A DNA stretch of 57,936 nt from a virus (Duplodnaviria; Caudoviricetes): IMG/VR virus record IMGVR_UViG_3300021197_001531, positions 1 to 57,936 of that record; one strand, 5' to 3'. A program made the translations under genes and the position numbers. Position 1 is the first letter of the stretch. The number at the start of each line of letters is the position of its first letter. Below are positions 183 to 57,936 of this stretch, piece by piece. Below the pieces are notes generated by a model. That model did not search any database and was not told the origin of the DNA. It saw only the letters and a list, made by a program, of their open reading frames with translations.

Positions 183-959
183 ATGACCAGTCCTTTTGAG
201 TCTGCATGGGCACTACTCAAAAACGATGATGAGGATTACATGCACCACGCCTCTGATTACATTGAGAGAATGTTTGGTATTCCTAACCAAAGGGCCATGG
301 AATTAGCGCAAGAATTGATGCAACACCAGTTATCACGAGCAAATATCCCTCAATCAAAAATTGATTTGCATACCGGAGATGCTGGAATGACAAGTGATTT
401 TCTCAATCAAAAGTTTGCTAAGCCCTTGGCTGGTAGCCTTTACAACATGAATAGAAACATAAACGAAGTAGTGGATAATCATCTTGGCGACGAAAATCTT
501 AGCCAGCAAATCGGTCAACGAACCAGCAACGAGGCATTCTCACGGCGTGGCTTAAAGGGTAATCCCCGTGTCCCACAAATGGATGAAGAGGCCAGTTATG
601 CTAACATTTCAATTCCTCGTGAATCGCCTATCCATGGCTTAGAGCCATTTGGCGAGAACGAGCCAATGGGCGCAACCATGGGAATGCCAATGGCTGATGA
701 TGTTCTTGAGCCAATTCGTGAACGCCAACGCATGCGTGAGCAAGAGTCATTCAATCCATTTACCGCAAAACCTTCTCGTCCTCCTGCGCCCCCAATGCAA
801 GAGTCGGATGTGCCGATGAGTAACGAACCCATGTCCCGTGGCCCAATGCGCTCTCGCAAGCGAGGCGACCCTGCTCGCCAACCAAGATTCGTCCGACCGG
901 GTTTCCGTTCTACCGAAAGTATGCCCTTAACGGACAAATCCGCTGAAAGCAGATTGTAG
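183..959 (+). CDS. Hypothetical protein with N-terminal SPFESAWALLK tag; putative virion-internal protein
   Basis: ORF 174-959; ATG 183 preferred from TATA spacing; tag shared with other ORFs; low-complexity M/P/R-rich C-terminus. Confidence 0.7.
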   Translation: MTSPFESAWALLKNDDEDYMHHASDYIERMFGIPNQRAMELAQELMQHQLSRANIPQSKIDLHTGDAGMTSDFLNQKFAKPLAGSLYNMNRNINEVVDNHLGDENLSQQIGQRTSNEAFSRRGLKGNPRVPQMDEEASYANISIPRESPIHGLEPFGENEPMGATMGMPMADDVLEPIRERQRMREQESFNPFTAKPSRPPAPPMQESDVPMSNEPMSRGPMRSRKRGDPARQPRFVRPGFRSTESMPLTDKSAESRL

Positions 960-999
960 TAGCCGTTAAGTTTATTTTATGCACCGGCCTCACCGTGTC

Positions 1000-1170: not shown

Positions 1171-2006
1171 ATATCACCGTGTACGAGGTCGGCCCTCGTG
1201 ACGGTCTTCAATCTATAGAACATTTTATTCAAACGCCGATAAAACAAAATCTGATTGCCGCTTTGTACAATGCTGGTTTAGAGCATGTGGAAGAGGTGAG
1301 TTTTGCTCACCCGAAACTTGTGCCGCAAATGGCTGACGCAGAAGAAGTGTATGACAGGGGTGCCGCTTTAATCATGAACAAGCGTGGGTATGACCGTGCA
1401 GTGGCGGCTGGAGTTGACAAGTTCAACATCGTTTTTAGTCCGTGTGAAACTTTCAACATCAACAACATGGGCAAGACTCGCAGTGAAATTGTGTTGATGT
1501 ACAAGACATTCATGAAAGAAATACCCAAAGACAAGGTGCGAGTGTACATCAGCATGGCATTTGGTTCACCCCATAGCGGCACACCTCGCCTCAACACTCT
1601 CATTTCGTGCATTCGTGATGCCAAGATGTTTGGTAATACTGTGGTGTTTGCTGACACTGTAGGTGTAGCGACTCGTCGGGACATGGAATATGTGGGTGAA
1701 TTGGCGAAAAACGAAGGTGTGCGACCAGCACTCCACCTGCATCACAATGGCAACGAAGGGCGAGCCATGGAATTAGTGCGTCACGCCATCTTCCATGGCA
1801 TTCACGAGATTGATTCCAGTATTGGTGGTCTTGGTGGGTGTCCGTTTGCTACCAACAGTGGGGCAAATTTGTCCACTGAGTCATTGGTTGTTAATTTACA
1901 CGCTTGGGGTTTTGAAACTGGTGTAAATGAAAATGTATTGAAAGAAGCATCACTCATAGCGAGCAAAATAAAATTCAATGATGAGGGCCGTAAAATAGTG
2001 GCATGA
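1167..2006 (+). CDS. hmgL: Hydroxymethylglutaryl-CoA lyase-like protein (DRE-TIM metallolyase); auxiliary metabolic gene
   Basis: EVGPRDGLQ, SFAHPKLVPQMADA, ADTVG, HLH metal motif and DSSIGGLGGCPFA..SGANLSTE signature. Confidence 0.88.
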   Translation: MNITVYEVGPRDGLQSIEHFIQTPIKQNLIAALYNAGLEHVEEVSFAHPKLVPQMADAEEVYDRGAALIMNKRGYDRAVAAGVDKFNIVFSPCETFNINNMGKTRSEIVLMYKTFMKEIPKDKVRVYISMAFGSPHSGTPRLNTLISCIRDAKMFGNTVVFADTVGVATRRDMEYVGELAKNEGVRPALHLHHNGNEGRAMELVRHAIFHGIHEIDSSIGGLGGCPFATNSGANLSTESLVVNLHAWGFETGVNENVLKEASLIASKIKFNDEGRKIVA

Positions 2007-3621
2007 TTGGGCGTTGTTTTGTTGGTGTCAAATTACCCATGTGTTTCTCAGCCAGCAGTTTTACAACCTGCTCCATGTCGGGATGAATACCCTCAATGAG
2101 TGTGCCTTCGTTAGTGTCGGTCATTTTATGCGCCCGGTCAAGGGTGGTGAGGTCACCTCGCAGTGCCTCGGTGATTTGATGCGGCAACTGCAACTCGCCT
2201 TTGAGCATACGCCAAGCCATGTCCATTGGTGATGATTTGAGAATGCCTCGTGCAACCAACTGGTTGAATACCGCTTGTTCCATAATTGGTAATGTGCGGA
2301 TTCGTTGTGGTGAAATCTGTTTATTATTGTAAGTGTACATATTCGGGTAACCCATAAGGTTGTCAAACTTGCCTGCTATTTCCTTTCCTTCATCGGTATC
2401 AAGGAACTTATCTTTCACAATCGTTTCTTCGGCGGTGGCAAGTTCATCTTTCATTCTTACCGCATCCTCTTTAGCCTGCCTGTTAGCGGCCAATGTATCT
2501 GCACGCTTTCTTTTTGTTTCATCTCTCATGCTTTGTTCTGCTTGACTCTTTTTTTCTTCAACTTCCCTTTTCCTTTCGGCCTCTTCTTCCTCTTCCTTCT
2601 TTCGCCTTTGCTCAAGCATTTCGGCGTATCGCCTTTCTCTTTCTTCACGAGTGTTCTCGTTGTGTTGACGATTAGCGGCAAGTAAACTTTCTTTGGAATC
2701 AAGGTTAGGGCGCATAACATTCTTTGGACGAACCATTTGCTCGTAGTCAACATCATGGTCTTGCTCTAACACTGTGGTCAAGCCCGGTGAAGCCATTTCT
2801 TGGAGAAGTGGCTGATATTGCTGAGTTGTTTTACTTCCAACGCCACTTCTTTTACTCTCAAAGAGATTTTTTACAGCACCTCTCATTCGGTCGGAGCCAC
2901 CCTTTTCTTCGTTGAACTTTGGAAGAGCAGTAAAATCAATGTGTTGTTCAAGAGCGTTCATCAGTTGGTGGGATGGGATATTGTACATTCCGGGGAAACT
3001 TTTGGGGTCACTGTGCTCTTGGTCGTACATGTAATCGGGATTAAATCGTGTTGAGGTCCAATCATCAGCAGTGTCCCTGTATTCTGTTTTCCCCTGCATA
3101 TCTCTTATGTTTGATTTGCCTTGGGTATCAAATTTAGGAATGTCTTCAACGAAACCTGCTCGCACTTTACCGTGCTGGTTGGGTTGGAAAAGATTGGGAT
3201 TTTGCATATTTTCAATGCTCGTGTCAATGATTCGTTGGCGAGATTGAGCGTATTCGGGTGTTCGGAAAGGTGAAGTAAAATACATGTCCTTCAGCATTCG
3301 CCACGACATATCCATAGGCTCTCCCGTGGTGATTTGCGAGCCAGCCTTGGCTTTGTCGGCCATTTGCTGGCCACGCTGTTCCATGTTCTGTTGGCTTTGT
3401 TTTGTTTGCTCAGCAATTTTATTTCCAACATCTTGTGGGGCACCCGCTATGCGTTCAGCGGCGGCGTCCTTTATTTTGTCAGTAAAAGTCTGTTTTGCTG
3501 TTTCCTTTGCGACTTTTTTAGCCGCTTGTCCTGCTACAACATTCGTCACAACATTAGCGGCGGCAACAGCACCAGCGGCGGCAACAGGCGGTGCTTTGCG
3601 AATAGCGACACGCCTGCTCAT
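1975..3621 (-). CDS. Hypothetical modular protein (N-terminal RRVAIRKA plus two internal PMDMxWRMLK tags; E/K-rich coiled coil)
   Basis: 548-aa ORF; tags at 3289-3324 and 2200-2235; divergent promoter shared with the gene at 3673. Confidence 0.75.
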   Translation of the reverse strand: MSRRVAIRKAPPVAAAGAVAAANVVTNVVAGQAAKKVAKETAKQTFTDKIKDAAAERIAGAPQDVGNKIAEQTKQSQQNMEQRGQQMADKAKAGSQITTGEPMDMSWRMLKDMYFTSPFRTPEYAQSRQRIIDTSIENMQNPNLFQPNQHGKVRAGFVEDIPKFDTQGKSNIRDMQGKTEYRDTADDWTSTRFNPDYMYDQEHSDPKSFPGMYNIPSHQLMNALEQHIDFTALPKFNEEKGGSDRMRGAVKNLFESKRSGVGSKTTQQYQPLLQEMASPGLTTVLEQDHDVDYEQMVRPKNVMRPNLDSKESLLAANRQHNENTREERERRYAEMLEQRRKKEEEEEAERKREVEEKKSQAEQSMRDETKRKRADTLAANRQAKEDAVRMKDELATAEETIVKDKFLDTDEGKEIAGKFDNLMGYPNMYTYNNKQISPQRIRTLPIMEQAVFNQLVARGILKSSPMDMAWRMLKGELQLPHQITEALRGDLTTLDRAHKMTDTNEGTLIEGIHPDMEQVVKLLAEKHMGNLTPTKQRPIMPLFYGPHH

Positions 3622-3672
3622 GCCTTACGCATGAGGGGATATATCTTTAAATTATTCACTCATAAGAAAATC
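3622..3672. promoter_or_regulatory. Bidirectional TATA promoter
   Basis: Palindromic TTTAAA (3646-3651) lies about 21 nt from ATG 3673 (+) and about 24 nt from ATG 3621 (-). Confidence 0.55.
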
Positions 3673-4950
3673 ATGGCGAGGGTGCTGATAAGCAAGGCTA
3701 CTCTTGCTGATTTCGGTGTACCTCGCCAAGAAGTGGCAGTTCGCCCACCTATGCCCACCGAACAACAAATTCGTGAAGCGGTGTTGGGGGATGAAAACTT
3801 GGGGTTAATGTCACCCGAACAGTACGGTATGCGAATGCCCCTTATTGAGCGTGAGCGAGATTCGTCTGTGGAAGAAAGACAAAGAGAAAAACACAATCCG
3901 GGTGAAACAGGAAGGAAATTTTTAGAGGGTATGAGGCTTGAAGGTGCGTTAGCAAGTGGTGTCGCTATGCGTGAGTTTCCTGCCATCGGGATGCACGATA
4001 ATCACGAAGTAATGCCATTTTTGCGTGATTACTATAGTCGGCAAACTACGATACCCGAACATGACTGGCAGTATCACACTGAAGGGCCGTATTATGATGA
4101 AGAAGGGAACATCTTGCCCGGACAGGTACCCCCTGTAGATGCTGTTAAGTTAATGGGAGAAGCCGACATCAAGCATGTGGGACAGGGGAGTGGATTTGGA
4201 TTAAAACCACTCCCTTTTTCACATGTAAACGAAAGGTGGGAAATAGACGATATAGAACCCGGAAAGCAATTTCCTGCTGAAAACATAGGTTTTGTCGGCC
4301 CAACTATGGAACAAGCCATAACACGAAATGCAGCCGCTAATGTTTCACGACAAACTCCAAGGGGGTATGTTGGAGTAAGAGGATTCGGTAGGCCAAGCGA
4401 TAAGGCGTTTGCAAGAAGAACATTTGAAGGTGGAGAAGGTGGTTTTACAGCACCCATACCACCGGAACGCTTAGTAGGTGCTATGCCTGCATCAAGAGCC
4501 AATTTAGGAAAAGATTCTTCAAGAGTATTACCTGTAATGAAGCCGACAATTGTTGAACCAAAAACCGATAAGGAAAAAATAATGGAAGCAGTGAGAGATG
4601 GTATCATATCCCCATTAGATGTGCCATTACTATTGGCCCGTAAAAAATATATGAGTCACGAATTTCCTTACGACGCAGAATGGTATGAAGGTGTTATACC
4701 AACATTTTCAAATAAAATGCGGCGGGAAAGCCAACCAGCGGTAAATGCCATTAAAAATGCTTTTAAAAACGCTATACCTAAGTCGTGGGAAGAAGGGCAT
4801 TTCGGGCTGGAGAATGCAATTTTAACCGACGCTGAAAAAGCGAATTACATCCGTCAACTGGAAGAGCAACAGGAAAAACTACCCTTTTCATATGTAGATG
4901 AAGATAACACGGTACTTTATCCAAAGAAAACAGGGGTGCGTTTCACATGA
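3673..4950 (+). CDS. Hypothetical protein (N-terminal MARVLISKA tag)
   Basis: ORF track starts at 3334, but that extension overlaps the antisense gene. In-frame ATG 3673 follows a TATA box and gives the recurring VLxxK leader. Confidence 0.72.
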   Translation: MARVLISKATLADFGVPRQEVAVRPPMPTEQQIREAVLGDENLGLMSPEQYGMRMPLIERERDSSVEERQREKHNPGETGRKFLEGMRLEGALASGVAMREFPAIGMHDNHEVMPFLRDYYSRQTTIPEHDWQYHTEGPYYDEEGNILPGQVPPVDAVKLMGEADIKHVGQGSGFGLKPLPFSHVNERWEIDDIEPGKQFPAENIGFVGPTMEQAITRNAAANVSRQTPRGYVGVRGFGRPSDKAFARRTFEGGEGGFTAPIPPERLVGAMPASRANLGKDSSRVLPVMKPTIVEPKTDKEKIMEAVRDGIISPLDVPLLLARKKYMSHEFPYDAEWYEGVIPTFSNKMRRESQPAVNAIKNAFKNAIPKSWEEGHFGLENAILTDAEKANYIRQLEEQQEKLPFSYVDEDNTVLYPKKTGVRFT

Positions 4951-6518
4951 AGCCCGTGCTGGTCAAGAAGGCTTTGCCTCGGCATTGGTCAAAGGATTTT
5001 GATACCACTGAGGATTTACGCAGTGTGTTAAGACAGGCTCGTTTGATGTCTCTTGAGGATGCAAAAAACATTGAAAACATACCGCTAAGACCCGAAATAA
5101 GAGATTGGGAATTAGAACAAACCGCTGAAGGAATGAAAAGTATTGTTCCGGGTATTCAAGGTGGAAAAATCACAGACCAAGGATATGTGGATGAAGGTGG
5201 GGCGTTTACTTATCCCCCTCAATTACAATCATTTCTACCCTTGATACACCCCGAAGCAAGAATGAGCGGCGTTACTATGCCCGACATACCCGGCTCAATG
5301 GGTAAACCGGGTGGAAGACCGAGTGTTTTAGTTGGTTCCTTTGAAAAGCCGGAGTTTCACGCCACTCAAAAAGAAGGGCGTGTACAAACAGAAGGGTTCA
5401 TGCCGGGTGGTTTTGACCCTTCTCAAGCGGTTCTTCTCACAGAACCCTCTCGTGCCTTCGCAAGACAAGAAGTGCCAATGGCTATACACAATCTTGTAGG
5501 AGGAAAAATGAAGGATTATGCTCCCGGCACCTTTGGTTATAATGAACCCGCAGGAAGGGCCATGGAATCATTCAACATTTTACCACATGGTGCAGAAAGT
5601 CCATTGTCGCAGTATTCGGGGTGGGGGAAACCCCGAACTGTTGATGATGAATTTCGCCTTAGCGAACCAATGGACATCGCTTTCCAACTGCTCAAAGCGT
5701 ATGATGTTGAAGAAGTCAAAAGAAAACTTATGGACAAGGGTTCTTATGAAGACTATGTTGACTATCAAATCACTGATGCACAACCCGGTATGGACAGGAC
5801 ATTACCCCGTCCTTACGGTTTAATGAGCCACCAAGCGTTGAATGCTTTACATAACGGGTGGTTTGAAGGGGATATTCGGGACATGCTTGATGACCCCAAT
5901 TTTTCCTTTGAAAGAGATAACGAGGGAAATGCGATTTGGAGTGCTCACAATTTAGGATGGGGAAACCCCGAACACGCCGACCCCGAACATATGGGTTTTA
6001 TGATTGAAAATCAATTAGAAGGAACCCCTGTGGACTTTGAAGGAATAGGTAGAGAGAGTAATTTAAGGACATTGGAAAATGTACCCTTTGAACTCAATGA
6101 GCCACAATCGTCATCCTTTTTGGGAATGAAAATGAACCCCACATCCACTACCAGTTTTTCCACTCATTCAGCACACGGTCCAACAAACACCTTAGAGGAA
6201 GTTGAGGGAATGAAAGGGCGAGGTTTTCAAGACATTTACACAGGCGAACCAATGAACATCGCTTTCCAACTGCTCAAAGAGCGTGTAAGCCCCGAAGCCA
6301 AGCGGCACAAGTTGGAGTACGACAAGAAGTACGAGTCCAGCCCGGAACGGGTGAAGTATCGGGAGGACTTGAACCGTGAACGCCGCCGCCGTGGTATCTA
6401 TGGTAGTCATAATCACCAAGATGTAAGTCACACTGAGGGCGGCAAATTAACCCTTGAAAGCGAGCATGAAAACAGGGCACGGCACTTCAAAGACAAGGGA
6501 ACCCTTCGGGAATTGTGA
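4947..6518 (+). CDS. Three-module protein separated by EPMxIAFQLLK tags; C-terminal module basic and possibly HNH-like
   Basis: MKPVLVKKA leader; SEPMDIAFQLLK (5661-5696) and GEPMNIAFQLLK (6243-6278); last module has DVSH...ENRAR, reminiscent of small phage HNH proteins. Confidence 0.72.
   Translation: MKPVLVKKALPRHWSKDFDTTEDLRSVLRQARLMSLEDAKNIENIPLRPEIRDWELEQTAEGMKSIVPGIQGGKITDQGYVDEGGAFTYPPQLQSFLPLIHPEARMSGVTMPDIPGSMGKPGGRPSVLVGSFEKPEFHATQKEGRVQTEGFMPGGFDPSQAVLLTEPSRAFARQEVPMAIHNLVGGKMKDYAPGTFGYNEPAGRAMESFNILPHGAESPLSQYSGWGKPRTVDDEFRLSEPMDIAFQLLKAYDVEEVKRKLMDKGSYEDYVDYQITDAQPGMDRTLPRPYGLMSHQALNALHNGWFEGDIRDMLDDPNFSFERDNEGNAIWSAHNLGWGNPEHADPEHMGFMIENQLEGTPVDFEGIGRESNLRTLENVPFELNEPQSSSFLGMKMNPTSTTSFSTHSAHGPTNTLEEVEGMKGRGFQDIYTGEPMNIAFQLLKERVSPEAKRHKLEYDKKYESSPERVKYREDLNRERRRRGIYGSHNHQDVSHTEGGKLTLESEHENRARHFKDKGTLREL
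5662..6279 (+). repeat. 36-nt direct repeat pair (5662-5697 and 6244-6279), 35/36 identical
   Basis: GCGAACCAATG(G/A)ACATCGCTTTCCAACTGCTCAAAG read at both positions, 582 nt apart and in frame. Confidence 0.92.
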
Positions 6519-6700: not shown

Positions 6701-6702
6701 CG

Positions 6703-15550: not shown

Positions 15551-15554
15551 TTCT

Positions 15555-17074: not shown

Positions 17075-17263
17075 ATGAGTTGCGATTGCGGTCACTGTGT
17101 TGGAATGGGTACCGCTTGGGACGCTCTTGAAAAGAAACTTTGTCCCGAAGGTAAAGCGGCGGCGAAGCGTAAGTTCAAAGTTTATCCCTCAGCGTATGCT
17201 AACGGATGGGCTGTACAATACTGCCGTGGTAAATTTAAGGGTAAAAAGGGGAAGAAGAAATGA
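17075..17263 (+). CDS. Small basic protein (KVYPSAYAN type) behind an MGTAWDALEK tag
   Basis: Lys-rich; KRKFKVYPSAYANGWAVQYC resembles small basic proteins of marine viruses. Confidence 0.65.
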   Translation: MSCDCGHCVGMGTAWDALEKKLCPEGKAAAKRKFKVYPSAYANGWAVQYCRGKFKGKKGKKK

Positions 17264-31827: not shown

Positions 31828-32127
31828 GTGGCTTTTGATGTGCGAAATATAGACTTGAGCGACATTACTCGTGCTGGTAAGCAGGACCGTAAGGCAGACT
31901 TCCAATACGGTAGCGATGTGGTTACGAATACAGAAGGCCCACTTGAGGGCATTACGCAATCGCAACGCAAGCGCAATCAAGAAATAGGTGATGTGCTTAA
32001 CATCGGAGCAGGTACACGCTGTATTCATTGCGGGTTTCTCCACTTTCTGTGGAGGGCCACTTGTGGGGCTTGCGAGAAACCAATGGAATACAATATGGGA
32101 CATCGTGACGAAAAGAAGAGGTTGTGA
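31828..32127 (+). CDS. Zinc-ribbon protein
   Basis: CIHCG..CGAC; GAGGTGG RBS. Confidence 0.68.
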   Translation: MAFDVRNIDLSDITRAGKQDRKADFQYGSDVVTNTEGPLEGITQSQRKRNQEIGDVLNIGAGTRCIHCGFLHFLWRATCGACEKPMEYNMGHRDEKKRL

Positions 32128-49800: not shown

Positions 49801-52800
49801 ATGTAAAGAGCCGCTATTTGGCAGGTATTGTACGCCAGCGTCCTGTACCCCTCGTTATGCGTATGCCGCATCAAACGGCACGCTATACGGACCACAAAAA
49901 CAACACGCAATACTTCACTACTTACCTCATTTACGGCCCCGGTCAAGCCTTCCCCTTCAACGAAACCAGCACTGGTACGCTGGGGGCAAAGGAGCCTCAC
50001 CCCGGTTATGTTGTTACGACAGGTAATACTTGGAGTAAGGTACCTCACAGTCAAAACTTACCCAATGAAATCACCAACAGCGACGGTGACTACGGCCCAC
50101 CCAGCACCACTTATCAATCCAACCGTCACCGATTCAATTACCATACAACGCTTAACTGGTCACCGGCCCAAGGTATTCCAAACATAGGAGCCGATACTTC
50201 TTCTTCTTTCGGATTGGGTCAGCGTCTTGAACATGGTTATCACTACGGTGAACACTTCGGTAACATCAACATCACCGTCAACAGCAACAACGAGTCAGCC
50301 TTTGGTAAAGCGCATCCATACCAACATTGCGCTATTGGTTACTACGGTATTGCGATGAGTGCCGACATGACTTTCCACATGGATGGTGGTTACCACCCCG
50401 GCGGCTCGTGGCTTGATAATCAAATGGCATTTAATCCACCCATGGAAAAGGGCGACTTCCAACTGGATAAAATTAGCGGAAATCTTGTTCACCCTACTGC
50501 ATTCCGGGTTTCCGGTGTTATGGCTGAGAAGGTGCTGGCAGGCGCACTGGCTGAGGTTGCTACAGACTTTGACCGTGAAATCATTGTAGTGGACGGCACA
50601 CGATGTCAAAACGGTGAAGAGATGGCGACTATCATAGGACAAGCCATTAACGAAAATCCCGGTAAAGGTACTCTCAAGGCTATGGGTGGCACCTTCATGC
50701 CCAGCATGGGTAACGCCCAACGGCAAGACCGTTACGGTTGGACAGAACTCACCTTCAGTTCATACAGTTACGGTGGTTCCTACACGGATTTGGGTACTAC
50801 ACCCACCAGTGTGGCATATGTGGAAGCCACAATCGGTAGTGGTGATAAGCAAGATGAGTTAGAGCAAATACCAGCATCGGGTTGGATTCGTACCGATGAC
50901 GGACGGCTAAGCGGTGGTGCTTTTGGTGCATATCATTCTCGTGAAGTGTATGACAACAGCGGTACATGGACCGTGCGATTTTGGTTAGCACCTAACAAAA
51001 TTAGTGGTCAAGGGGCAATGGAAGATACTCAAACTTGGAAAGACAAAACTACCTCCGCTACACTCACTGGGCCGCAATTAAGTTCAGCATCTAAGGTCTT
51101 TGTATGGAGCAAGTCGGGTGTTCACTACTACAACAACGAGAATGCCAGCACTCGTGACCACATGACCCGTGTTCACTTTAGTGGGCTGGTGGATGCTCTT
51201 GACCGCACTCGCCCCGTGGGTGCCGTAGGGTGGGCTGGTGAGCGATACTCGTACCTCAACTCCCTCAAGGTAGGCACGGAGGGCTATGGTGCAGGTTTGG
51301 GTGCATGGCACCCGATGTTAGGCTTCTCACCCTACGGCAAAGCATCCAGTGTGATGAGCACTTTCAGTCATTTACCTCACTTTAATCCATTCAAGCACGG
51401 ACCCGAAGCCAGTGGACCCATCAACGGGTATGGTACAACGAATACCATATTGACCACACCATACACTTGGCAGTACGATGATTACAAACCATCGGGTTAT
51501 ACTTTCCAAGAGTCCGATGGTTCCTCCTATGGAGTCAAACCCTTGCACATCACTGATGCTAACGAAGTACCCCGTGCCCTCCACAGCACGCAGGGGTTGT
51601 TCAGCAAAGCATCCCTTGTGATTTCGTATGAAGGTGAGTTGTCTCTTGTTGCTAAGCATGACCGTGACGGTATCACGGCAACAGGTGACTGGCTTGCGGT
51701 GGTCAACAAGACCGCTGGCGGTACTGCCGCCGCTGACGCTATCAAGTTCGCAGGTACCACTCAGTGGGACGAGCGTGTGCACGGTGTTGACCGATTTGTG
51801 GCCCCTGCTCACGGCGGGCCTAACATTGAAGCCCTCATGATGGACTTAACTCTACCAATAAGCAACATCATAGCAGGTGCTTATGATTTTCACACCGCCA
51901 TTGGTAGCGATGATAACAGCGTGTACAACGCTGAACCCTGCTTCGCAAAGACTGGTGATTTGTTCTTTGACCTTGACAAAAGCCCCGGTAGTTTCTTCTT
52001 GGAAAATGCAAACGCTGTTGAACGCAATCGTATTACTGATTATTTCACACTCGGTAATGCGGCTTTAGACCGCTATACTGAGGACGATGATTTTTGGTTG
52101 GGCAACACCAACGCATTCAAGATGAATCAACGCTCTCCAGCCAAAAATTTCTCCGTAGAACATGTCGTATGGAAGCGTATGGATGGTGGTAACCTCTCCC
52201 TCCCTGCGGTCAACGCCCGTGGTCTTGGTGCCGTACCTTTCGTGACACGGGTTGACAGCGGTACACCGTACACCATGGGTGAGAAACTGTACGGTATCAA
52301 CCGATTTTCGTTTGAAACGACGAACAGTGCCATGTTCCCCATCATTCAAGCGCAAGAATTGGCTCACCCGCAAATTGCCGCCAGTCACCCCGATGAGTTG
52401 CGAAATGTGTTGGCCATTCCCAACGAGGAAGCACAATTTGAGGAAATGCAGGTGGAAGATGACACCGGCCAAGTACATATCGTTGAGGGTGGTTCACCCT
52501 TTGGGACGATTATCCGCACTTTCAACCCCATTTCCGACCGTAGTGCTGAAGGTCTTGCACCTGCTACTGCTGGAAGCGGTGTGGAGCCTAATCTCAAAGT
52601 ACGCCTCCCCAACCCCGATAGCATACCCGGTAATCTGCTGGTGCGTGCAGGGTTTGACCGCTTGCAAGCCTATCAAAACGAAACGATGGGTACTGGCGGA
52701 ATGATGCGCCCGCTATCAAGCGACAGTACAAAACATTTATTCACTGATGAAACGAAAGGTCCACGCCGTGGTGGTACCTTCAGCGACCACAATTGGGAAC

Positions 52801-55800
52801 ACATCAGTCAGTCCAGTTTCCCCGACCCTACTTATTCGGGTTGGGAAACAGCAACGGGTAACGCCCCGTTGGAAACCTCATACGAACTGCACGACCGCAC
52901 CCTGTTCTTCCACATCACCAAGAATGGTAACACTCACAGCCACCGTTACCCAACTTACTACACTCATGCTAACGGTATCACCAATAACGATTTGACCGCT
53001 GTTTCGTTTAGCAGTGGCACGCTGACTGTGAACGCTACAGTGGACCAATCGTTGTTTAATGAAACAATTCGTGACGGGCGCAGATTCCTGCGACTGTATG
53101 ACCCAGTGACCGACCGTGGTGGTGTTGCATCGTGTACGGGCATCAGCGGTGCTACATTTACAGGTTGCGTAGGCGATGCTGACTTTGCTGAGTTGGTCAA
53201 GTCATCCATTACCTCGCTCAAGGTTGTACCGTCATACTACATTCCCGCCGGTAGCACTCGTTTCTTCGCCGCTCGTCGTCTGCGTGACCATGCTGAAGTG
53301 AGCGGTAACAGCCCCGACATGCTTCACACCCTTTACGGTACGAATTTCGTTGACACTGACACGCTTTGCCACACCGTGTATGCTCAACCTAAGATGAGTC
53401 CACTCGCCTTACCTCGCATGGGTCACCACTTCGTAAATCCAACCATGGCGATGTTACCCGGTCACTTGGCTCATCCCGCATACCAAGGTGTGTACGACAA
53501 ACACCGAGCAATCCGTTCAGCCACCGTTAAGGCTCACGAAACTTCTCTCATGGAAGAACAGGGACTTAATGACCTCAAGAGTGATATTTCAACTACCCTT
53601 AACGATAAGTTGTACGGCTACGACACCTTGCATACTTTCAGCAGTTTAACAGCCACACCAAGCGGCCCCAGTGATATTCACGGCGGTGCGTTTACACTGA
53701 TGTTTGAGTCCAAAATTCGTAGCGATGGTTACGGTGTACTGGCATCTAAAGGACAGGCTGGGGTCATCAATGCCGCTGGTGGGCACTCCATCGTATTGGA
53801 AGCCGCCGCATCGTACACCCTGCGCCATCACTTCCCCGACCCATCCGAAGTCGGTGCTTACCAAATTGTCATTCAACCCAATATGCACAAGTCGCAGTTT
53901 ATCGGTTTCCATCAAAACAGTACGACTGGGTTCCCCGATGGTTCGGTTAAGGAATTGACCAGTCAACAGGTAGCACTTGTTGTTGGTTTGCGTGAAGCCG
54001 ATAGCGCAACAGGGGCGGTGGCTTTGGTATTGGCGGAGGCTACAGTGGCCGATGTGCGTGGTTGTGAAGTCTTCATCAACGAACTCATCATTGACCAAGA
54101 CCCCGACCACGGAAGCCAATTCACGAACATTCCACCACTGATGTTGTACAACTCCTTGGGTGTACAGGGTACGGAAAGTCCAGCATTCGTTAAGCGGTCA
54201 TTGCCTTACCAACCACAAATGTTTGCTCGTGCTACACCCGGTATGACCACCAACATTCCATGGTGGAGTATTGTACACAAGGATGGACCCGACCACGCTG
54301 ATGCCACTGGCTTCCGTCATCTCAGCCACCACCGCCTTGACAACTACTACGAGTTCTTGCGAGCCAGTGCTGGTAGCATCGCCTGTCAAATCACGCTTGC
54401 GGGCTACCCAAGCCTGTACCCCGACCTGTACCACGAGGTGCTTGAGAACATCAGCCTCAACCCAGTGTGCACCGTGGTAAGCGTTACATCAACCACCATT
54501 ACGGTTGACGATGCTCGTGGCTTCCCACAATTGCCTTATTACGGTAACAAGTTGGAGTACACCGATGCAAACGGTGTACGACGCACACACACTTACACTG
54601 AGCGCAGTGGGTATGACGCCACGAACATGAATGAACCAAAGCAATTTACTATCGTTGCAAACAATGATTTCACGAGCAATCTAAACACCGGAACGAAACT
54701 ACGCCTTACCCGCCCATACGACTTCCAACCCGCTGGTGCTATTTTGACAGACTCCAAGACCAGCATGGTAACCCGTATCTTACCGCAGATGCTACAGGGT
54801 AGCCGTGACACGAACAGTTTGCACATGGCTGATGCTTTCCTGTGCCTGTGGCACCCCAATCTCGGTCGCCCTCATACTTACTATTCGGACTCCGCTTCTC
54901 GTACTTGGTTGAACCCAACCAGTGACCGTGCTGGTGACAAGAAGCCACTCAATAGTATGCCCGAACACTTTGAAACGGTACACTATCACGATGCGTCATA
55001 CTACGCCAGCCTTGGGCCATTTGCCTTCCATCGCAAGACACCCCGCCCCCCGTATGAGATAATAGACACTTATGGTGAGCCTGCAATAGTTACAGCGTTT
55101 AACGCAACTGCCAAGACAATCACAACGGAATTAAGAGGTTACGCCCTTGCAGTGGGTTCCAAAATTATTGTTGATGGAGTCGCTTATACTGTGGCGAGTG
55201 ACAGTGTTCCTACAGCGGTGATAACGGTTAGTGAGGCAATAAATGGGGAAATCCGCATTGGCTCAACTATTCTCATTGACGGTGATGGTACAATGGAAAC
55301 TGCTGATGTTTTGGACACCACATACGGGACAACTGGTGTTATCGCTAATCGCTTTGACCCACAGGGTGGACAGTGGGATTCAACTGACGACAGCACCAAG
55401 GTCAACCTCAACCACTACTGGCCTTGTGGAAGCCGCGGTGGGCCGCTGGTGAGTCGTCTTGACGGGTACGGTTATGTTTCAGCCGCATGGAACTTCCCAC
55501 GAGAATACACCTTTGATGGTCCTGTTTGGGTTGACGGTGATGATGATGGAACATACAACATTCAAAACGGCGTGAGCAAGACCTCTTACGATGGTATCAG
55601 CAACCCAACACGCACCCGACCTTTCGGTTACCGCATTGGCCTACGCCAACCCTACAACAAGCCTCAGTGGGCATTGTATGGTATGCGTTCTTTCCGTGAA
55701 GCCGCCATCACCACCCCAGCAGTTGACAAACTCAGCATCGGCTACCCCCATGGCCCATTGGTACAAGACGAAACCGAAACTTGGACCTACGCTGGTGGCG

Positions 55801-57608
55801 ACGGATTGAGCAACGGTACTTACCCCAACACACAAATCGGTATCATGGAACGGCAAACCAACTTCAGTGGTATGCTTGGGGTGGACAAGACTGAATGGCA
55901 AGTGCGCTACAGTGACGGTATGCGTGTCGCTCGTCCATTCGGTTGCCCTGTTCGCACGCTACGCAACAAATCCACCGTCCTTCGTGACTGGTGGGGTGAC
56001 GCTGAAGGTAAGGACATCGCCAATCTTGACGAGGCTATCAATTACTATCTTGTTGATTGGTGGGGCAACACCCGTGGCGAGGATGTTCGCCGCCACCCAG
56101 TTCGTGGTTTTGGTATTCGTCCAGCGTGGGATGCAGGTGACGCATACGAATACGACCGCACCAACAATAAATCACCCTTTGAACGCTTAGTCAATACTGA
56201 TGACCCGATTGTAAACCTAAAGGGTGTAATCAATTTCACGAGTAAAGATGTGAGTGTAGCGTCGGGTGTAACACTTCCACGCTTTGGTGGTCGCCTTAAC
56301 GATACCAACAACAACGACGCCACTGAACTGGTGGATGTGTACATGCCTACCAATGCTCACCGTGTAGGTGACGATGGACACGGGCGTGGTTTGCGTTATC
56401 CAACCGCTTTCAATGAAGATGTACTCACCGCACTTGACGAACCTTATCATGCCACGGGGCTGGTGCTTTCGCATCACACCGCTGAGCCGAACATGAACGA
56501 TGGTTACATCCGTGCACGCAACGATGTACTTCAACCCGATGAGGTACCTCGTGGTATCAGTGCACGCCTTGACATCGCTGAGGATGGTCTGCTTAAGCCC
56601 GAAGCAGTGGTGAGCGACCGTGTTGAAACGGTGAGCGGTGACTCGCCTCACAAGGATGCCGTAAGCCGCAGTGCCCCTCGTATCGGTCTTGACACCGAGA
56701 ATGTAGAGGGCGTTGATGACAATCTCATCGCCATCAACACCGAGGCTCACAGTTTGCACACCGACCGTGGTGTAGGCCAGCGTGTTATCGTGCAGGGCGG
56801 GCATGAAGGTGGCTCTCAAACACTACTCAATTATGACCTCAATGCTGTGGACTTCACCGGACAGCCACAGGGTGGCGTCATGCGCCTTTCACACACTTCT
56901 AATTTCAATCCACTGGGTGGTACATATCTCGCTGAAACCCGCAATTTCGTGCAACCAATTGACGATAGTGGTTGGGGTGGCATTGATGGTAGTAACAAGA
57001 CCGCCAACCCCTACGAAACCAGCATATTTGATGCTTCCAGCGACCAAACCAACTTCACGGACAAGCGCATCACCTACATGTTGCGCCCTGTCCGTTTGTT
57101 GGACAAGCAACACATTGAGATGTTCCGACCCAACAACAACTTGAATGCCCTATCACCTCAATTCGGGAGCAATTATTTCTCCACTACAGCAGGCGGTAAG
57201 TACGGTGCATATGCTTACGAGATTACAGGTGGTCGTGCAACCAGTGGTAACTACATCCGGTCCACCAATCCCGATGGTAACCCTCCTTACGCTCCATTGT
57301 ATGTCATGGACATCTCTTCCAACGACAGCACACCTGTCAGTACCGGACCAAACATCCTTGGTACCGCCAAGTCAACATTTGATTCGTCCAAGTTGGACAA
57401 CGAAGTTACCCGTGTTATCATCAGCGAGAATACCCTGCAACACTACCGTGCTGACGCATCACGCCGACGCACGCACCAAGAGGGTGAAAGCAAGGAGGAA
57501 CGCATGGATTATACCGTCCAGCCTCGCTTCTCTCAATCTCTACATCCAAAAGGACATAAAGGGGATGTAACCTACAATTCAAATGACCACAGTGGTGATG
57601 CTTCGTGA
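40866..57608 (+). CDS. Giant (5580 aa) tail/adhesin protein with an N-terminal LamG/concanavalin-like domain
   Basis: Uninterrupted ORF; FFFDGVSDSV..FVIEAWV..YHVVA..LAVNG..YLGG..FRGAIEAI LamG pattern; G/T/S/D-rich; GAGGTGG RBS. Confidence 0.8.
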   Translation: MVAIGRSSHAFFFDGVSDSVIIPQGRFTKTGVKDADGNKLMTKTLQGSGDIVSINGKTIADFVIEAWVVPDCGGIIAHREGQFTLEMGTVDTPGPAVFTVQVESLQGPSYFRLATAYDASTRWDGIVYPQQEHGGIHDSYNRYDTSNYGDATNLNFNNRPLYHVVAGINQDRVFLAVNGEVVAEQDIPPETRLARSTEHVYLGGKGGEFRGAIEAIHFSNEFDENMIQPSMAVKSLTTSALFRFEEPIDVVQGTYDFNAYTVTDASTKTLTMSTTNAQALIARLTGKAYDSSTPTTTFTANPYSMGNYKVVDYYTNTGTPTTLAVPHTPYNLLINPGAINRNTQKPNQSPPERVRLESINGSTGVVTFSSIHIDFVNGTSGIRGALHSRTADVDNYFVVVGADLLIDNGTGKPYQPPHYGTQIFDKTGQMVLDESNTENHGLVYSNRMATTDTDTNNPFAVTWPAGLDTLFQIGHSGRHAFSHITGHEYMRRFPKPADLVVDQQADGSADIVQMAYDSNTRNIDEMFVMNSLVDFYSETLEAPIARIENSSSVATITHNGLPASKRELIAIGGSGFKYAAFMLKGPVPETGAIDENNRLHHLVPETESRVALLHVPALKTSHDLAPYVEIHYNAVDLTGASMGESAPMLMVEKTVPAGSFDLGSGTRVLDVITSDLANCTLYSPGGVIYLSNAISGYGSLMQESHTLIGDNTGGQESDTELDYSRTPELYTPVSDVNAEPASPPKAIARSHNSSTHESVYHRLAIESMSSSATDTIVDEGAGKRTRQPTTDKTGTGVFDLGPTTHSSRVFEMFNIIDNVLITDEAGLLAKIFVQPSVKSRVNQLSLVRSLGAGDTPNIASIMFLMSRCRVRGVSKQESPEGNMSTVVVTATGIADSFVNENVSVIGSGSPDSHVVKEIEPNAPVVTVTLGGPGQGGVNTKPTFDPSPLMRLPGSTRRNCVVQAKVVHTATVSALPFSMSITPINNGSPDIASWGTICFPKKGRVYLQDGASAEYNSKSGSGFYFDQTTTAIKDRKYLDAAGTAYANFHDWCNATGIINQASTGTHLTSVYISNDGDFDSDSLAQDGSTVNDRLFQSLDTVTHDYQLGTQFASTRAMVEIPVFPQQFFDHTELGIFPGPDNSMKLHVDATYTAHTWNPTPVGRRANDIEAADKTKFSAYSYTMNSQEHVGSAMITKFEVVGNFYYLYVSHPQLFPDASTTGTFGGIKDVRRVRRVFVNDEDWAFYVNDPSTDGYLKIPYNSNGGFHEGVSDTFAFNAIVGSRIYIVDSRNESLIPLSSDSDTPSSDYEGRSPFYHDMANVMTQGGNLDYGLRQYVSAVEFKAGPLANPHAPRTVSKRASSKILQVTQESAIGGGTQLELILEDASLFPDAPFTKDSSNAISFEQGDLLFISEIMLDTPIEGFYYGRVTNTAGTNSVIMVIPDGVSFTAGDFVGVNLRLKKYGRALSGLSDPANAILSERAITTFYPTTADERWEFPTAYSAGTTTVLNITNGSKRFAHANTVGVNIRKGDKLYKQTGTGTLNIKYVGEVSAVESNEVTGVYTQITLTANNAVGISANDRVRIGANSVITEDFDAILNRSWLYPYAQGGLRNGDTVWMNMTLNNPHAVEGLFAKSRGVFNEAAVWKGFNGGQGTLADRPRDSIPLENFLIGDSCLETAQNFAQHVNKTMEMNYEAMGLDASQAPTVAYIDPYLSTDGNARVLLFDVAHDREFIAFHDLHMQVQSSAATPTLGYTRDIAHSTGTIKLDKHLVSINGGAPHYFTTQLDVANGFPSENKYLRSTQQSKFIESAYAHNTPNMGGGAYTLTDPSSRGANPFVRGKGHGHFVHTGYFHEETSNTHTVGDSTLPRVQPAVASVYYANQAHKTVRIERAGDSLISTLRSHRLSKDPNTHSFKDSSTLFDTPDGTRVISAFLCLKGKRSNHLDLVNHEESRLQHLKHWSQMDFVRRMTLDLGEVGVKEGVTDIEAAARELVRIINQGGAPKGRTHARRPSQQYPGESERLDLTRIGVRQDIGDENKDPTSAHINADFAATGSTYDPSPFWYGDIAFDTHDRGSHMGYVRAHLGRVVEDINGNEGYSIVIHSTIPGASGRNFCVWLDNSKGQSSYQPQFLIGHGGRFRNFWAQPDEILGENMHPAPMPLNKDGRPFAPVTTLREFVPQEKPNEAFTSNHDVSSRGDKTTNPNGRNISAHLGGISHNSVNDESFEAQSPSTTLVKGLRTGKQATARINFGGLVETGVPGFSPIAGKYGLGRKGDLSFNKRYNETILTGGTSPVANGSYTNHILSTELLDEKIGDAPLYGFRFTDHRGIGYGIRLIYREMNSPFANELTTIPSTIDEEICVYFDDRDVAQGGFTIGQNMLGAGDGTGRLTVESGMTEALWRGNQWRGMYAPSIGVDSQIKWDSTDSTIEIRLEAPFDTATSDFDAINDILGYLGFPRENGVLQITDPIYDSDLTYIGSLGNTVSYESRTQNDATGTHIFYGVRGSSFTISHYLSTFGGAATEGTGAEQLPATSNNIIRGLISPRLNMTTLVTDELLAAVTAAAVNLENPNIQEGFSFNCREMYAPDGRTFGEWGVAADAIKIRAHNPQQGARSLSKMFTASVHKDLGIAAPHLEFGEYQSLIQSGSSWTVTDGSTAVNEPYSDDDIETHHKKIDCGYIPHTVLQITSKARGFHTNTPTPILVDSYNDPVPVSRWRNNLKGIRFTRKSGDHITPALDNTAVIYDSFNGSTGVFTLLNSIAAILIPAGFESDALSISGSNRDRLVSYGDKTVIYHGTLKKALGTSLQDSSASGLDKLLVDISESNEAWKGEYEGVSTITDDGLLAVQNQNVFTGIRLYGSVESEPITYFKGGQDSKDHSVPLYFGGGFSGVVLDVNDGSKNDYSSFYTHPYSTGPTGTAGIQNANEISTAYALVDCNALLAFFPGTPFLDQHRGSINPPAYNQDSLLSPDIDVGTLATLTALPGHVKSRYLAGIVRQRPVPLVMRMPHQTARYTDHKNNTQYFTTYLIYGPGQAFPFNETSTGTLGAKEPHPGYVVTTGNTWSKVPHSQNLPNEITNSDGDYGPPSTTYQSNRHRFNYHTTLNWSPAQGIPNIGADTSSSFGLGQRLEHGYHYGEHFGNINITVNSNNESAFGKAHPYQHCAIGYYGIAMSADMTFHMDGGYHPGGSWLDNQMAFNPPMEKGDFQLDKISGNLVHPTAFRVSGVMAEKVLAGALAEVATDFDREIIVVDGTRCQNGEEMATIIGQAINENPGKGTLKAMGGTFMPSMGNAQRQDRYGWTELTFSSYSYGGSYTDLGTTPTSVAYVEATIGSGDKQDELEQIPASGWIRTDDGRLSGGAFGAYHSREVYDNSGTWTVRFWLAPNKISGQGAMEDTQTWKDKTTSATLTGPQLSSASKVFVWSKSGVHYYNNENASTRDHMTRVHFSGLVDALDRTRPVGAVGWAGERYSYLNSLKVGTEGYGAGLGAWHPMLGFSPYGKASSVMSTFSHLPHFNPFKHGPEASGPINGYGTTNTILTTPYTWQYDDYKPSGYTFQESDGSSYGVKPLHITDANEVPRALHSTQGLFSKASLVISYEGELSLVAKHDRDGITATGDWLAVVNKTAGGTAAADAIKFAGTTQWDERVHGVDRFVAPAHGGPNIEALMMDLTLPISNIIAGAYDFHTAIGSDDNSVYNAEPCFAKTGDLFFDLDKSPGSFFLENANAVERNRITDYFTLGNAALDRYTEDDDFWLGNTNAFKMNQRSPAKNFSVEHVVWKRMDGGNLSLPAVNARGLGAVPFVTRVDSGTPYTMGEKLYGINRFSFETTNSAMFPIIQAQELAHPQIAASHPDELRNVLAIPNEEAQFEEMQVEDDTGQVHIVEGGSPFGTIIRTFNPISDRSAEGLAPATAGSGVEPNLKVRLPNPDSIPGNLLVRAGFDRLQAYQNETMGTGGMMRPLSSDSTKHLFTDETKGPRRGGTFSDHNWEHISQSSFPDPTYSGWETATGNAPLETSYELHDRTLFFHITKNGNTHSHRYPTYYTHANGITNNDLTAVSFSSGTLTVNATVDQSLFNETIRDGRRFLRLYDPVTDRGGVASCTGISGATFTGCVGDADFAELVKSSITSLKVVPSYYIPAGSTRFFAARRLRDHAEVSGNSPDMLHTLYGTNFVDTDTLCHTVYAQPKMSPLALPRMGHHFVNPTMAMLPGHLAHPAYQGVYDKHRAIRSATVKAHETSLMEEQGLNDLKSDISTTLNDKLYGYDTLHTFSSLTATPSGPSDIHGGAFTLMFESKIRSDGYGVLASKGQAGVINAAGGHSIVLEAAASYTLRHHFPDPSEVGAYQIVIQPNMHKSQFIGFHQNSTTGFPDGSVKELTSQQVALVVGLREADSATGAVALVLAEATVADVRGCEVFINELIIDQDPDHGSQFTNIPPLMLYNSLGVQGTESPAFVKRSLPYQPQMFARATPGMTTNIPWWSIVHKDGPDHADATGFRHLSHHRLDNYYEFLRASAGSIACQITLAGYPSLYPDLYHEVLENISLNPVCTVVSVTSTTITVDDARGFPQLPYYGNKLEYTDANGVRRTHTYTERSGYDATNMNEPKQFTIVANNDFTSNLNTGTKLRLTRPYDFQPAGAILTDSKTSMVTRILPQMLQGSRDTNSLHMADAFLCLWHPNLGRPHTYYSDSASRTWLNPTSDRAGDKKPLNSMPEHFETVHYHDASYYASLGPFAFHRKTPRPPYEIIDTYGEPAIVTAFNATAKTITTELRGYALAVGSKIIVDGVAYTVASDSVPTAVITVSEAINGEIRIGSTILIDGDGTMETADVLDTTYGTTGVIANRFDPQGGQWDSTDDSTKVNLNHYWPCGSRGGPLVSRLDGYGYVSAAWNFPREYTFDGPVWVDGDDDGTYNIQNGVSKTSYDGISNPTRTRPFGYRIGLRQPYNKPQWALYGMRSFREAAITTPAVDKLSIGYPHGPLVQDETETWTYAGGDGLSNGTYPNTQIGIMERQTNFSGMLGVDKTEWQVRYSDGMRVARPFGCPVRTLRNKSTVLRDWWGDAEGKDIANLDEAINYYLVDWWGNTRGEDVRRHPVRGFGIRPAWDAGDAYEYDRTNNKSPFERLVNTDDPIVNLKGVINFTSKDVSVASGVTLPRFGGRLNDTNNNDATELVDVYMPTNAHRVGDDGHGRGLRYPTAFNEDVLTALDEPYHATGLVLSHHTAEPNMNDGYIRARNDVLQPDEVPRGISARLDIAEDGLLKPEAVVSDRVETVSGDSPHKDAVSRSAPRIGLDTENVEGVDDNLIAINTEAHSLHTDRGVGQRVIVQGGHEGGSQTLLNYDLNAVDFTGQPQGGVMRLSHTSNFNPLGGTYLAETRNFVQPIDDSGWGGIDGSNKTANPYETSIFDASSDQTNFTDKRITYMLRPVRLLDKQHIEMFRPNNNLNALSPQFGSNYFSTTAGGKYGAYAYEITGGRATSGNYIRSTNPDGNPPYAPLYVMDISSNDSTPVSTGPNILGTAKSTFDSSKLDNEVTRVIISENTLQHYRADASRRRTHQEGESKEERMDYTVQPRFSQSLHPKGHKGDVTYNSNDHSGDAS

Positions 57609-57936
57609 TGGATTATGATTTTTGTGATTGTTGTTCTCCCGCTGAATTGGCCTTTGCGGTGATGAAAGCCAAGAAGGAAAAACCGTTTCATGGTTACAAC
57701 CCAAACAAGCACAGCAAAAAGGGTGGACTGAACGCTAAGGGTCGTGCCGCCGCCAAGCGCAAGAGTGGCGCAAACCTCAAACCTCCTGTGACAACCAAGC
57801 CAAGCAAACTCAAGCCCGGCTCAAAGAAAGCAAAGCGTCGTAAGTCGTTTTGCGCTCGTATGAGCGGTGTCAAAGGCCCGACCAGCAAAGGTGGTAAATT
57901 GACACCAAAGGGAGCATCCTTGAAGCGATGGAACTG
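57608..57936 (+). CDS. Partial small basic protein (DUF6321-like) behind an SPAELAFAVMK tag; absent from the ORF track, runs off the window end
   Basis: Manual translation from ATG overlapping the upstream TGA: MDYDFCDCCSPAELAFAVMKAKKEK..KGGLNAKGRAAAKRKSGANLKPPV..RRKSFCARMSG..SLKRWN. Confidence 0.75.
   Translation, partial: MDYDFCDCCSPAELAFAVMKAKKEKPFHGYNPNKHSKKGGLNAKGRAAAKRKSGANLKPPVTTKPSKLKPGSKKAKRRKSFCARMSGVKGPTSKGGKLTPKGASLKRWN

Follow-up and report, generated by a model that had tools for sequence, protein, structure and literature searches.

A recurring lysine-ending tag leads and separates swappable protein modules in magrovirus-like viruses

A lysine-ending tag at the joints of modular polyproteins

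Here we follow a short peptide that recurs in otherwise unrelated proteins encoded by a 57,936-bp viral contig, IMG/VR record IMGVR_UViG_3300021197_001531, which was analysed over its full length and is hereafter called the window. The peptide, which we refer to as the tag, has 12 residues, ends in lysine and follows the consensus [GS]-E-P-M-D-[IL]-A-[WMFY]-[RQ]-L-L-K; it leads or separates unrelated, swappable modules, and the genes that carry it are therefore modular polyproteins. We confirm the tag as a real, lineage-wide feature of magrovirus-like viruses, and comparison of its sites across loci makes a role as junction signal in shuffled modular polyproteins well supported. The original prediction on this DNA had proposed just such a recurring helix-forming, lysine-ending unit ahead of or between unrelated modules, and in this respect it stands.

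Conservation of the tag is most apparent in an iterated profile built over the loci, which gathers 112 distinct 16-mers with the consensus x-[IKF]-x-[TAK]-[GS]-E-P-M-D-[IL]-A-[W68 M20 F13 Y9]-[R66 Q34]-L-L-K. The glutamate (112/112), the proline (109/112), the methionine (112/112), the last leucine (109/112) and the lysine (111/112) hardly vary, and conservation ends abruptly at that lysine. The next residue is glutamate in 33, alanine in 20, methionine in 19 and serine in 15 of 142 cases; methionine occurs there at three times its background (p = 1e-5), as would be expected of former start codons that were kept. Within the window, a strict regular expression run on the six-frame translation returned six matches, all six within long open reading frames (ORFs), and a profile made from relatives scores four window sites at 15-32 bits. 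With the tag profile, none of 100 residue-shuffled window proteomes reached 10 bits, the maximum being 6.5.

In all, four canonical copies of the tag and five variants backed by relatives are present in the window. The weaker copies are taken as real variants because orthologues or other relatives carry matching or similar tags: at the position of MGTAWDALEK all seven orthologues have a tag, one of them canonical (GEPMDIAFRMMK); SPAELAFAVMK is retained in orthologues, relatives having the form M-x-AF[DE]EAW..[IL]EK at the head of DUF6321 modules; and N-terminal PF[DE]xxW..LK forms similar to the variant at 189-221 occur in G001 and G004, two near-complete relatives introduced below. The nine peptide strings originally reported with coordinates all translate exactly as given, and the tenth, IDYVMAFLK, is present in the ORF starting at 17260; we dropped it as a tag copy because none of three orthologues has a counterpart.

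The spread of the tag was traced with a degenerate DNA pattern for EPMDxAWxxLK that allows any synonymous codons. In IMG/VR this pattern gave 64 matches in 56 loci, and all 56 loci also carry other magrovirus-like genes. Across 596 Gb of cellular genomes it gave six matches, five of them in short or unrelated frames and one a true tag, on a 16-kb contig (L157) that was binned into a bacterial metagenome-assembled genome and has 22 protein matches to magrovirus-like genes; judged by these matches, this contig is probably viral DNA binned into a bacterial genome. Apart from this contig, the tag is absent from the cellular genomes searched. The haloarchaeal siphovirus HVTV-1 has no tag at E <= 10 with the same profile that detected tags in the window and in four relatives. 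A word-based protein search with a 41-residue tag region returned only three matches among six candidates and is uninformative on spread. The exact tag strings were not found in the literature searched; in the main texts of the magrovirus papers (supplements lay outside this search) the word "polyprotein" is absent and "motif" is used only for a helix-turn-helix motif.

Where the tag sits within proteins is the evidence on which its role as a junction mainly rests. Among 130 distinct tag sites in the 56 loci, 10 lie 0-4 residues ahead of a stop and 16 within 30 residues of an ORF start, 12 of these 16 beginning at the methionine or 1-2 residues beyond it (e.g., M-EPMDLSWRLLK); the rest lie between modules. 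One tag is carried by 51 ORFs, two by 22, three by 3, four by 2, and five, six and seven by one ORF each, and the multi-tag ORFs are chains of 80-350-aa segments with the tag as separator. Cutting the ORFs at their tags yields 200 modules of at least 35 aa, which fall into 92 clusters. These modules are combined freely: an HNH-like module, which in the window ends ORF C (Table 1), has 15 members behind 14 different preceding clusters, and another cluster of seven members has seven different predecessors. Modules of one kind are found both as stand-alone genes that open with methionine and tag and as inner segments of polyproteins. Furthermore, some junctions are degenerate, having lost the EPMD half and kept only hydrophobic-hydrophobic-(x)-K directly before a module that follows a full tag in other contigs, as in VIRK/ERVSPEAKR, VLVK/ERKSPEAM, PVPVIK/RQTELGEFH and, within the window at 32907-32924, SKSVLK/NDFFNP (here and below a slash marks the position after the lysine).

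The clearest single case of the tag as a module boundary is the ORF at 32124-33074, which lies among head genes. A tag is present in 37 of 38 orthologue rows, where the conserved part of the protein ends in SRxV[AP][MF]RDAWS[VI]LK; after it, a stop follows within six residues in nine rows, and the others continue into about 14 kinds of module, many of them zinc ribbons. Taken together, the site positions, the module cutting and the orthologue rows bear out the earlier claim that the motif stands at N-termini or at junctions ahead of self-contained modules.

Genomic setting and tagged genes of the window

The window is the entire IMG/VR record, a single contig without a terminal repeat that CheckV rates 54% complete. 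We read it as roughly half of a magrovirus-like archaeal tailed-virus genome, an assignment by properties published for magroviruses, because of its capsid identity, its relatives of about 100 kb with DNA_pol_B, and a sub-threshold ligase domain in its head module. Its capsid protein is 34-36% identical to those of HVTV-1, HCTV-1 and HCTV-5 (haloarchaeal siphoviruses), and little else was matched in the phage collection; the magrovirus capsid protein is described, in the relevant part of its original account, as about 33% identical only to haloarchaeal siphoviruses (PMC5434244). The same account gives magroviruses a genome of about 100 kb, a family-B DNA polymerase and a ligase within the structural module, and assigns their hosts as Marine Group II / Poseidoniales archaea (PMC5434244). 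Four IMG/VR relatives of 96-110 kb, rated 90-100% complete, have capsid proteins 77-82% identical to that of the window, and all four encode DNA_pol_B in the genome part outside the window; two of them, G001 and G004, compared as whole records, are syntenic with it. A 1895-aa protein encoded at 22319-28006, just upstream of the prohead protease gene, contains a sub-threshold ATP-dependent DNA ligase domain (residues 1439-1566, 22.7 bits, cut-off 26.2), which fits the published remark on a ligase inside the structural module; relatives have 1863-aa ORFs at its place.

The location of the tags is uneven. In the four near-complete relatives, no profile hit at E <= 1e-3 (15, 10, 4 and 5) is farther than about 30 kb from the capsid gene, always on its upstream side and counted across the contig ends; a single weaker hit in G003 (E = 0.03) shares this location. 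The window, G001 and G004 were also scanned with a looser pattern. Its 15 sites in G001 are confined to 107.0-108.6 kb and 0.5-20.4 kb. In G004 the count is six, covering 100.2-106.6 kb and also a lone site at 25.25 kb, past the capsid gene by 2 kb on the downstream side. No tag was found in tail genes or in the DNA-polymerase part, by the profile in the four near-complete relatives and by the looser pattern in G001 and G004. The tagged ORFs of the window occupy 0.2-12.5 kb, before the terminase gene, and variant copies follow at 17.1 kb, at 57.6 kb and, within the head genes, at 32.6 kb. An enrichment in virion-module over replication genes had been named as a check on the original prediction; in complete relatives the tags are confined to the arm beside and inside the head genes and are absent from the tail and replication parts. 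The tagged genes are also hypervariable islands: homologues of ORFs A and B are lacking from G001 and G004, the flanking genes being 37-70% identical. ORF D is the single tagged gene retained in synteny in relatives, and for its modules cluster 0 is followed by cluster 1 in 15 of 22 cases.

Table 1. Tagged genes, tag copies, candidate cut sites and head genes in the window
Feature	Position	Strand	Remarks
ORF A	183-959	+	Met, variant tag (MTSPFESAWALLK, 183-221), 245-aa module without known family
ORF B, polyprotein-like	1975-3621	-	98-aa Ala/Lys-rich head, tag 1, 351-aa module, tag 2, 74-aa module (GELQLP...)
Tag SSPMDMAWRMLK	2200-2235	-	ARGILK (2236-2253) directly before
Canonical tag GEPMDMSWRMLK	3289-3324	-	31.6 bits, E = 2.7e-11
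ORF C, polyprotein-like	4947-6518	+	238-aa module, tag, 182-aa module, tag, 79-aa HNH-like beta-beta-alpha module
Tag SEPMDIAFQLLK	5661-5696	+	Predicted helix at residues 241-249
Tag GEPMNIAFQLLK	6243-6278	+	Predicted helix at residues 435-445
ORF D	11227-12501	+	Charged N-module, tag, 281-aa very basic disordered module
Tag variant with one extra residue, SEPMEDAWSTLLK	11617-11655	+	Retained by ORF D orthologues
Large terminase	15555-17045		Morphogenesis block
Tag variant MGTAWDALEK	17105-17134	+	Precedes small basic module (KLCPEGKAAAKRKFKVYPSAYANGW)
Portal	19193-20965		Morphogenesis block
Small scaffold-like protein	21372-21713	+	GGSLLK/S (21594-21611) and same C-terminal tail motif as protease-scaffold (21627-21689)
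Prohead protease (Peptidase_S78, about residues 10-177) fused to scaffold-like C-terminal half	28046-29422	+	Candidate processing enzyme
Conserved phi-x-K/S site (MTLQK/S)	29303-29317	+	In variable linker before C-terminal tail
Protease-scaffold C-terminal tail motif (DMANMGWDEVHALA)	29339-29401	+	
Major capsid protein (SU10_MCP, HK97-fold)	29448-30548	+	GSELLK/ADAP at residues 29-34 (29532-29549)
Head-cluster gene	32124-33074	+	Conserved N-domain, acidic linker, helix, tag variant, two zinc-ribbon modules
Tag variant AMRDAWSVLK	32649-32678	+	End of conserved part; predicted helix 177-185 ending at K185
Minimal junction SKSVLK	32907-32924	+	Before module NDFFNP..., which directly follows full tag in relatives
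Tag variant SPAELAFAVMK	57635-57667	+	Leads DUF6321 module (E = 1.9e-16); ORF 57605-57934 runs off window

The tagged genes and their surroundings are collected in Table 1. The C-terminal module of ORF B recurs behind other upstream modules in four further loci (L003, L014, L021 and L046). Few of the modules can be named. In Pfam, the tagged ORFs and their single modules, that of ORF A included, gave nothing above cut-off except DUF6321 and DUF5872; below it, weak matches to GNAT, HD and DnaJ-type zinc-finger families appear. The "HNH-like" label rests on a predicted beta-beta-alpha unit with conserved His, Asn and His columns, the module having no family match in the Pfam search. PHROGs profiles matched none of ten ORFs (seven from the left arm, three from the head region) apart from two matches for ORF 33088, and a search of the ESM Atlas with ORF D returned no match.

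As to its structure, the tag is predicted to be a self-contained 12-residue amphipathic helix. AlphaFold2 draws a short helix in all three modelled copies, ending at the lysine or within one residue of it: one in the model of ORF 32124 (residues 177-185; mean confidence score, pLDDT, 63.5, and 50-63 locally) and two at the tags of ORF C (residues 241-249 and 435-445; mean pLDDT 47.7). Because the confidence of these models is low, "helical" is to be read as a prediction.

Several other genes of the window deserve mention. A real gene of about 439 aa lies at 3631-4950 (+) and is easily missed because of a longer frame that starts with TTG and overlaps ORF B. An ORF of L014 shares 44% identity with this gene, part of it lies inside a 910-aa polyprotein of L021, and its stop overlaps the start of ORF C. 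DUF5872 is split over two small basic ORFs, at 17075-17263 (profile positions 11-43, sub-threshold) and 17479-17871 (positions 55-114), and its second half heads tagged polyproteins in two relatives (L027 and L009). Among the tagged genes, 1167-2006 encodes an HMGL-like protein (pyruvate carboxyltransferase / HMG-CoA lyase type, Pfam E = 1.6e-20) that is kept in G001 and G004 at 43-44% identity and may be an auxiliary metabolic gene. Further to the right, the protein of 38488-39708 has about six tandem repeats of roughly 31 aa each (..LPD.LT.D.YFGEGG.FDWD..W...F.F..) and sits at the expected place of a tape-measure or tail protein; a single 5580-aa ORF at 40866-57608, with syntenic ORFs of 5526 aa in G001 and 5980 aa in G004, takes up 29% of the window and, judged from its position, presumably encodes a giant tail or fibre protein.

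Candidate processing and competing explanations

We tentatively favour an explanation in which the tag is an address-and-cut cassette for head cargo, comparable to the capsid-targeting sequence (CTS) of phage T4 internal proteins, and is cut after its lysine by an S78 prohead protease. The tag helix would take its polypeptide into the prohead during assembly; there the virus-encoded S78 protease would cleave behind the invariant lysine (P3-P1 being hydrophobic-Leu-Lys), and the freed modules would be head-carried proteins delivered with the DNA. Docking, cleavage after the lysine, the protease responsible and presence in the virion are all parts of this proposal that we infer. The candidate enzyme matches its family above the curated Pfam cut-offs (PF04586, 42.2 bits, cut-off 21; PF14550, 32.5 bits, cut-off 24) and has 1293 homologues at E <= 1e-3, in the alignment of which S121 is invariant and H63 nearly so. 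A sequence search of the PDB with it gave no match. No protease other than Peptidase_S78 was recognised among the ORFs scanned.

Candidate cut sites resembling the end of the tag occur in the head proteins themselves, as had been proposed from the SELLK-A at K34 of the capsid protein and from LLKS, MEKG, LEKA, LSKS, IAKA, IVKS and LQKS in the protease-scaffold, strings that are all present. The protease-scaffold and the small scaffold-like protein of 21372-21713 have in common a tail motif, M-x-W-[DE]-[DE]-[VI]-H-x-[LM]-A, that lies within 25 residues of the C-terminus in 78 of 81 distinct occurrences in the loci and may be the capsid-binding end of two scaffold proteins. A site of the form phi-x-K/S or phi-x-K/G (phi, hydrophobic) is kept 15-22 residues upstream of this tail in both scaffold families, in a linker that is otherwise variable (TIQK/SAS, SLLK/STP, ILK/G, IMK/S). 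The capsid protein (Pfam SU10_MCP, 48 bits, cut-off 24.1) has GS[ED][LI]LK/ADAP in all three genomes compared, aligned to MSK/AD in HVTV-1, and the 1895-aa protein has [LA][LAY]K/SL.DG.D behind leaders of differing length. In numbers, the window proteome contains 17 instances of [GAS]xx[LIVM]LK where shuffles give 3.1 +/- 1.8, and nine of the ten instances outside tags belong to head-region genes; phi-x-K-[ASG] is present nine times in the protease-scaffold against 0.87 expected. Both patterns were chosen after some sites had been seen, and these figures therefore overstate significance.

A number of observations weigh against this reading. Twelve conserved residues far exceed what a cleavage site needs, and tags at the extreme C-terminus need no cutting. 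GITLLK/S at the N-terminus of the protease and NPEAQFRILK/E at the end of its domain were considered as cut sites and rejected, both recurring in S78 proteases only 27-63% identical; because they are conserved across such distant proteases, we read them as parts of the fold, probably its first and last strands. Among the close relatives listed for the capsid protein (at least 120, all about 80% identical or more), its 34 N-terminal residues vary no more than the remainder, and an N-terminus invariant in this set does not look like a disposable leader. By eye, the tag also resembles the scaffold tail (acidic, hydrophobic, small, W, hydrophobic, basic), a likeness discarded after hhalign gave it a profile-profile probability of 0.2%. 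ORF B and the structural genes are on opposite strands, and the left-arm genes scanned (five tagged ORFs and seven neighbours) had no virion-family match in Pfam or PHROGs. Docking, cleavage and carriage in the virion are steps that we infer, and the specificity of the S78 protease for lysine is only putative. Finally, some DNA-level process is also at work on the tag codons.

This last point follows from the codons themselves, whose usage differs strongly from that in the rest of their ORFs. Compared with the same ORFs outside the tags, GGC is used in 43 of 74 cases against 17%, GAC in 85 of 112 against 38%, ATC in 45 of 62 against 21%, GCT in 88 of 120 against 32%, CGG in 36 of 78 against 6%, and CTC, for the last leucine, in 62 of 133 against 10%. 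Codons are identical between tags in 60% of comparisons within one locus and in 48% across loci; at the same time, the tag DNAs are nearly all different (136 of 137), with no synonymous codon left unused. Predicted folding of the tag RNA comes to -6.2 kcal/mol, against -4.9 kcal/mol for synonymously recoded versions, the real tags also being richer in G+C (48% vs 44%). An internal Shine-Dalgarno sequence was considered as the cause of the CGG preference and rejected, as AGG, which would give GGAGG, is used in only three of 78 cases. Selection acts on the peptide as well, because replacement of W by M, F or Y and of I by L or M, which takes two-nucleotide changes, keeps its chemistry. Beyond this selection on the peptide, the codon pattern suggests gene conversion or recombination by way of the tag, or else some role of the RNA or DNA.

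It is conceivable, if somewhat unlikely in our view, that the tag is never cut and is instead a short linear motif, a binding helix that recruits modules, singly or several per polyprotein, to a common partner such as a host factor or a non-capsid viral hub. The length of the conserved stretch (12 residues), the predicted amphipathic helix in a disordered context, the use of N-terminal, internal and C-terminal positions, the last of which call for no cleavage, and the left-arm genes without virion annotation all agree with this. It leaves unexplained why tags are placed exactly at module boundaries and why conservation ends at the invariant lysine, and likewise the junctions reduced to phi-phi-K and the enrichment of methionine after the lysine; no candidate partner was identified. 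The evidence from module boundaries and degenerate junctions would count just as much for a cleavage signal used in the cytoplasm by a host protease or an unrecognised viral one, the freed modules then working inside the infected cell instead of being packaged. The resemblance of the modules to enzymes or effectors (the weak GNAT, HD and DnaJ-type zinc-finger matches and the HNH-like fold) would suit such a role. We nonetheless consider cytoplasmic processing distinctly unlikely: tags lie strictly beside and inside the head-assembly genes, with one tagged gene among the head genes, similar phi-x-K/S sites occur in the scaffold proteins, and the ORFs scanned offer no second protease.

The codon pattern raises another alternative, that the 36-nt tag is mainly a recombination joint, shared homology for module swaps whose encoded helix is a tolerated, neutral linker. 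A preferred nucleotide version that departs from local codon usage, the greater sharing of codons within than between loci, and module shuffling exactly at the tags are what such a joint would produce. A neutral linker, however, would not hold E, P, M, L and K nearly invariant, the chemistry-keeping replacements of W and I imply that the peptide is selected, and the DNA sequences of the tags are almost all different, with all synonymous codons in use; as the main explanation we find this very doubtful. Chance resemblance, or recent duplication within one genome, we regard as excluded: ORFs B and C do hold two copies each, but the shuffled proteomes gave no match in 100 trials, and the distinct sites are spread over 56 loci on many contigs with unrelated flanks. 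Returning to the address-and-cut cassette, a bolder version, which we think unlikely, would make it universal in an abundant lineage of ocean archaeal viruses, building combinatorial polyproteins of injected effectors, with the partly homogenised 36-nt coding sequence doubling as a recombination joint for the exchange of modules. Virion cargo would then be handled by a cassette system that operates on DNA as well as on protein.

Comparison with known systems

The archaeal virome of the surface ocean is reportedly dominated by magroviruses (PMC5434244). Most magrovirus genes are without known function, and the separator described here splits long unknown ORFs into about 100 module families, so that parsing by tag offers a simple route to the accessory or effector repertoire. 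Should the tag prove to direct proteins to the capsid and to mark where they are cut, archaeal tailed viruses would, within the literature searched, have their first example of such a system, and a tailed dsDNA virus would be seen to use polyprotein-style gene expression. The tag could also serve for loading foreign proteins into HK97-fold capsids.

The T4 CTS is removed by the prohead protease, at a site that ends in glutamate. The internal proteins that bear it are highly diverse defence proteins sharing only this conserved sequence, which places them in the scaffolding core (PMC3012670). As far as that description of the T4 proteins goes, they are the nearest parallel: here too, a short conserved peptide stands on otherwise diverse, fast-evolving proteins, and many tags also start at the initiator methionine. 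At 12 of 16 start-proximal sites the tag is a short conserved N-terminal peptide, and the otherwise unrelated modules fall into 92 clusters. Unlike the CTS, it also occurs between modules and at C-termini, in polyproteins with up to seven tags; it ends in lysine, the candidate protease is of the S78 type, the presumed host is archaeal, and targeting and cleavage are putative.

Giant phages offer a second parallel. The prohead protease gp245 of SPN3US cuts at 14 sites in nine proteins, all after A-X-E, and cuts some propeptides several times (PMC10052503). In these phages (SPN3US, phiKZ and 201phi2-1), on the published description cited, one short motif is likewise common to many head proteins and is cut by the prohead protease. 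Their motif, however, has three residues and serves to remove propeptides, whereas the tag is a predicted helix of 12 residues between unrelated modules that look functional, with lysine as the candidate P1 residue. Phage P1, for its part, packages Dar antirestriction proteins in its head, and the N-terminus of DarA is cleaved by the prohead protease Pro (PMC12810830). These are large accessory proteins carried inside the capsid, as we propose for the tagged modules; in the portion of the P1 account drawn on here, neither a common tag on unrelated cargo nor a polyprotein arrangement is described.

Beyond phages, the cargo-loading peptides of encapsulins are short conserved terminal peptides on unrelated cargo that bind the inside of an HK97-fold shell. 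They are rich in Gly, Ser and Leu and extended, there is no protease step, and the shells are non-viral. The arrangement is similar here in that an HK97-fold capsid protein is co-encoded with tagged putative cargo, and differs in that the tag is a Trp-centred predicted helix in a viral setting. Polyproteins of RNA viruses and the sites of the adenovirus protease yield several mature proteins per ORF by means of a repeated short site, and adenovirus substrates include basic core proteins. The window and its relatives share with them single ORFs built of modules that elsewhere occur as separate genes; unlike RNA viruses, the virus here is a tailed archaeal dsDNA virus, its modules are accessory and freely shuffled where those viruses have a fixed replication or structural set, and the separator is a predicted helix of 12 residues. 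The system thus differs from those known in the length and predicted helical nature of its element, in the use of that element as an internal separator, in its archaeal S78 setting and in its conservation at the level of codons.

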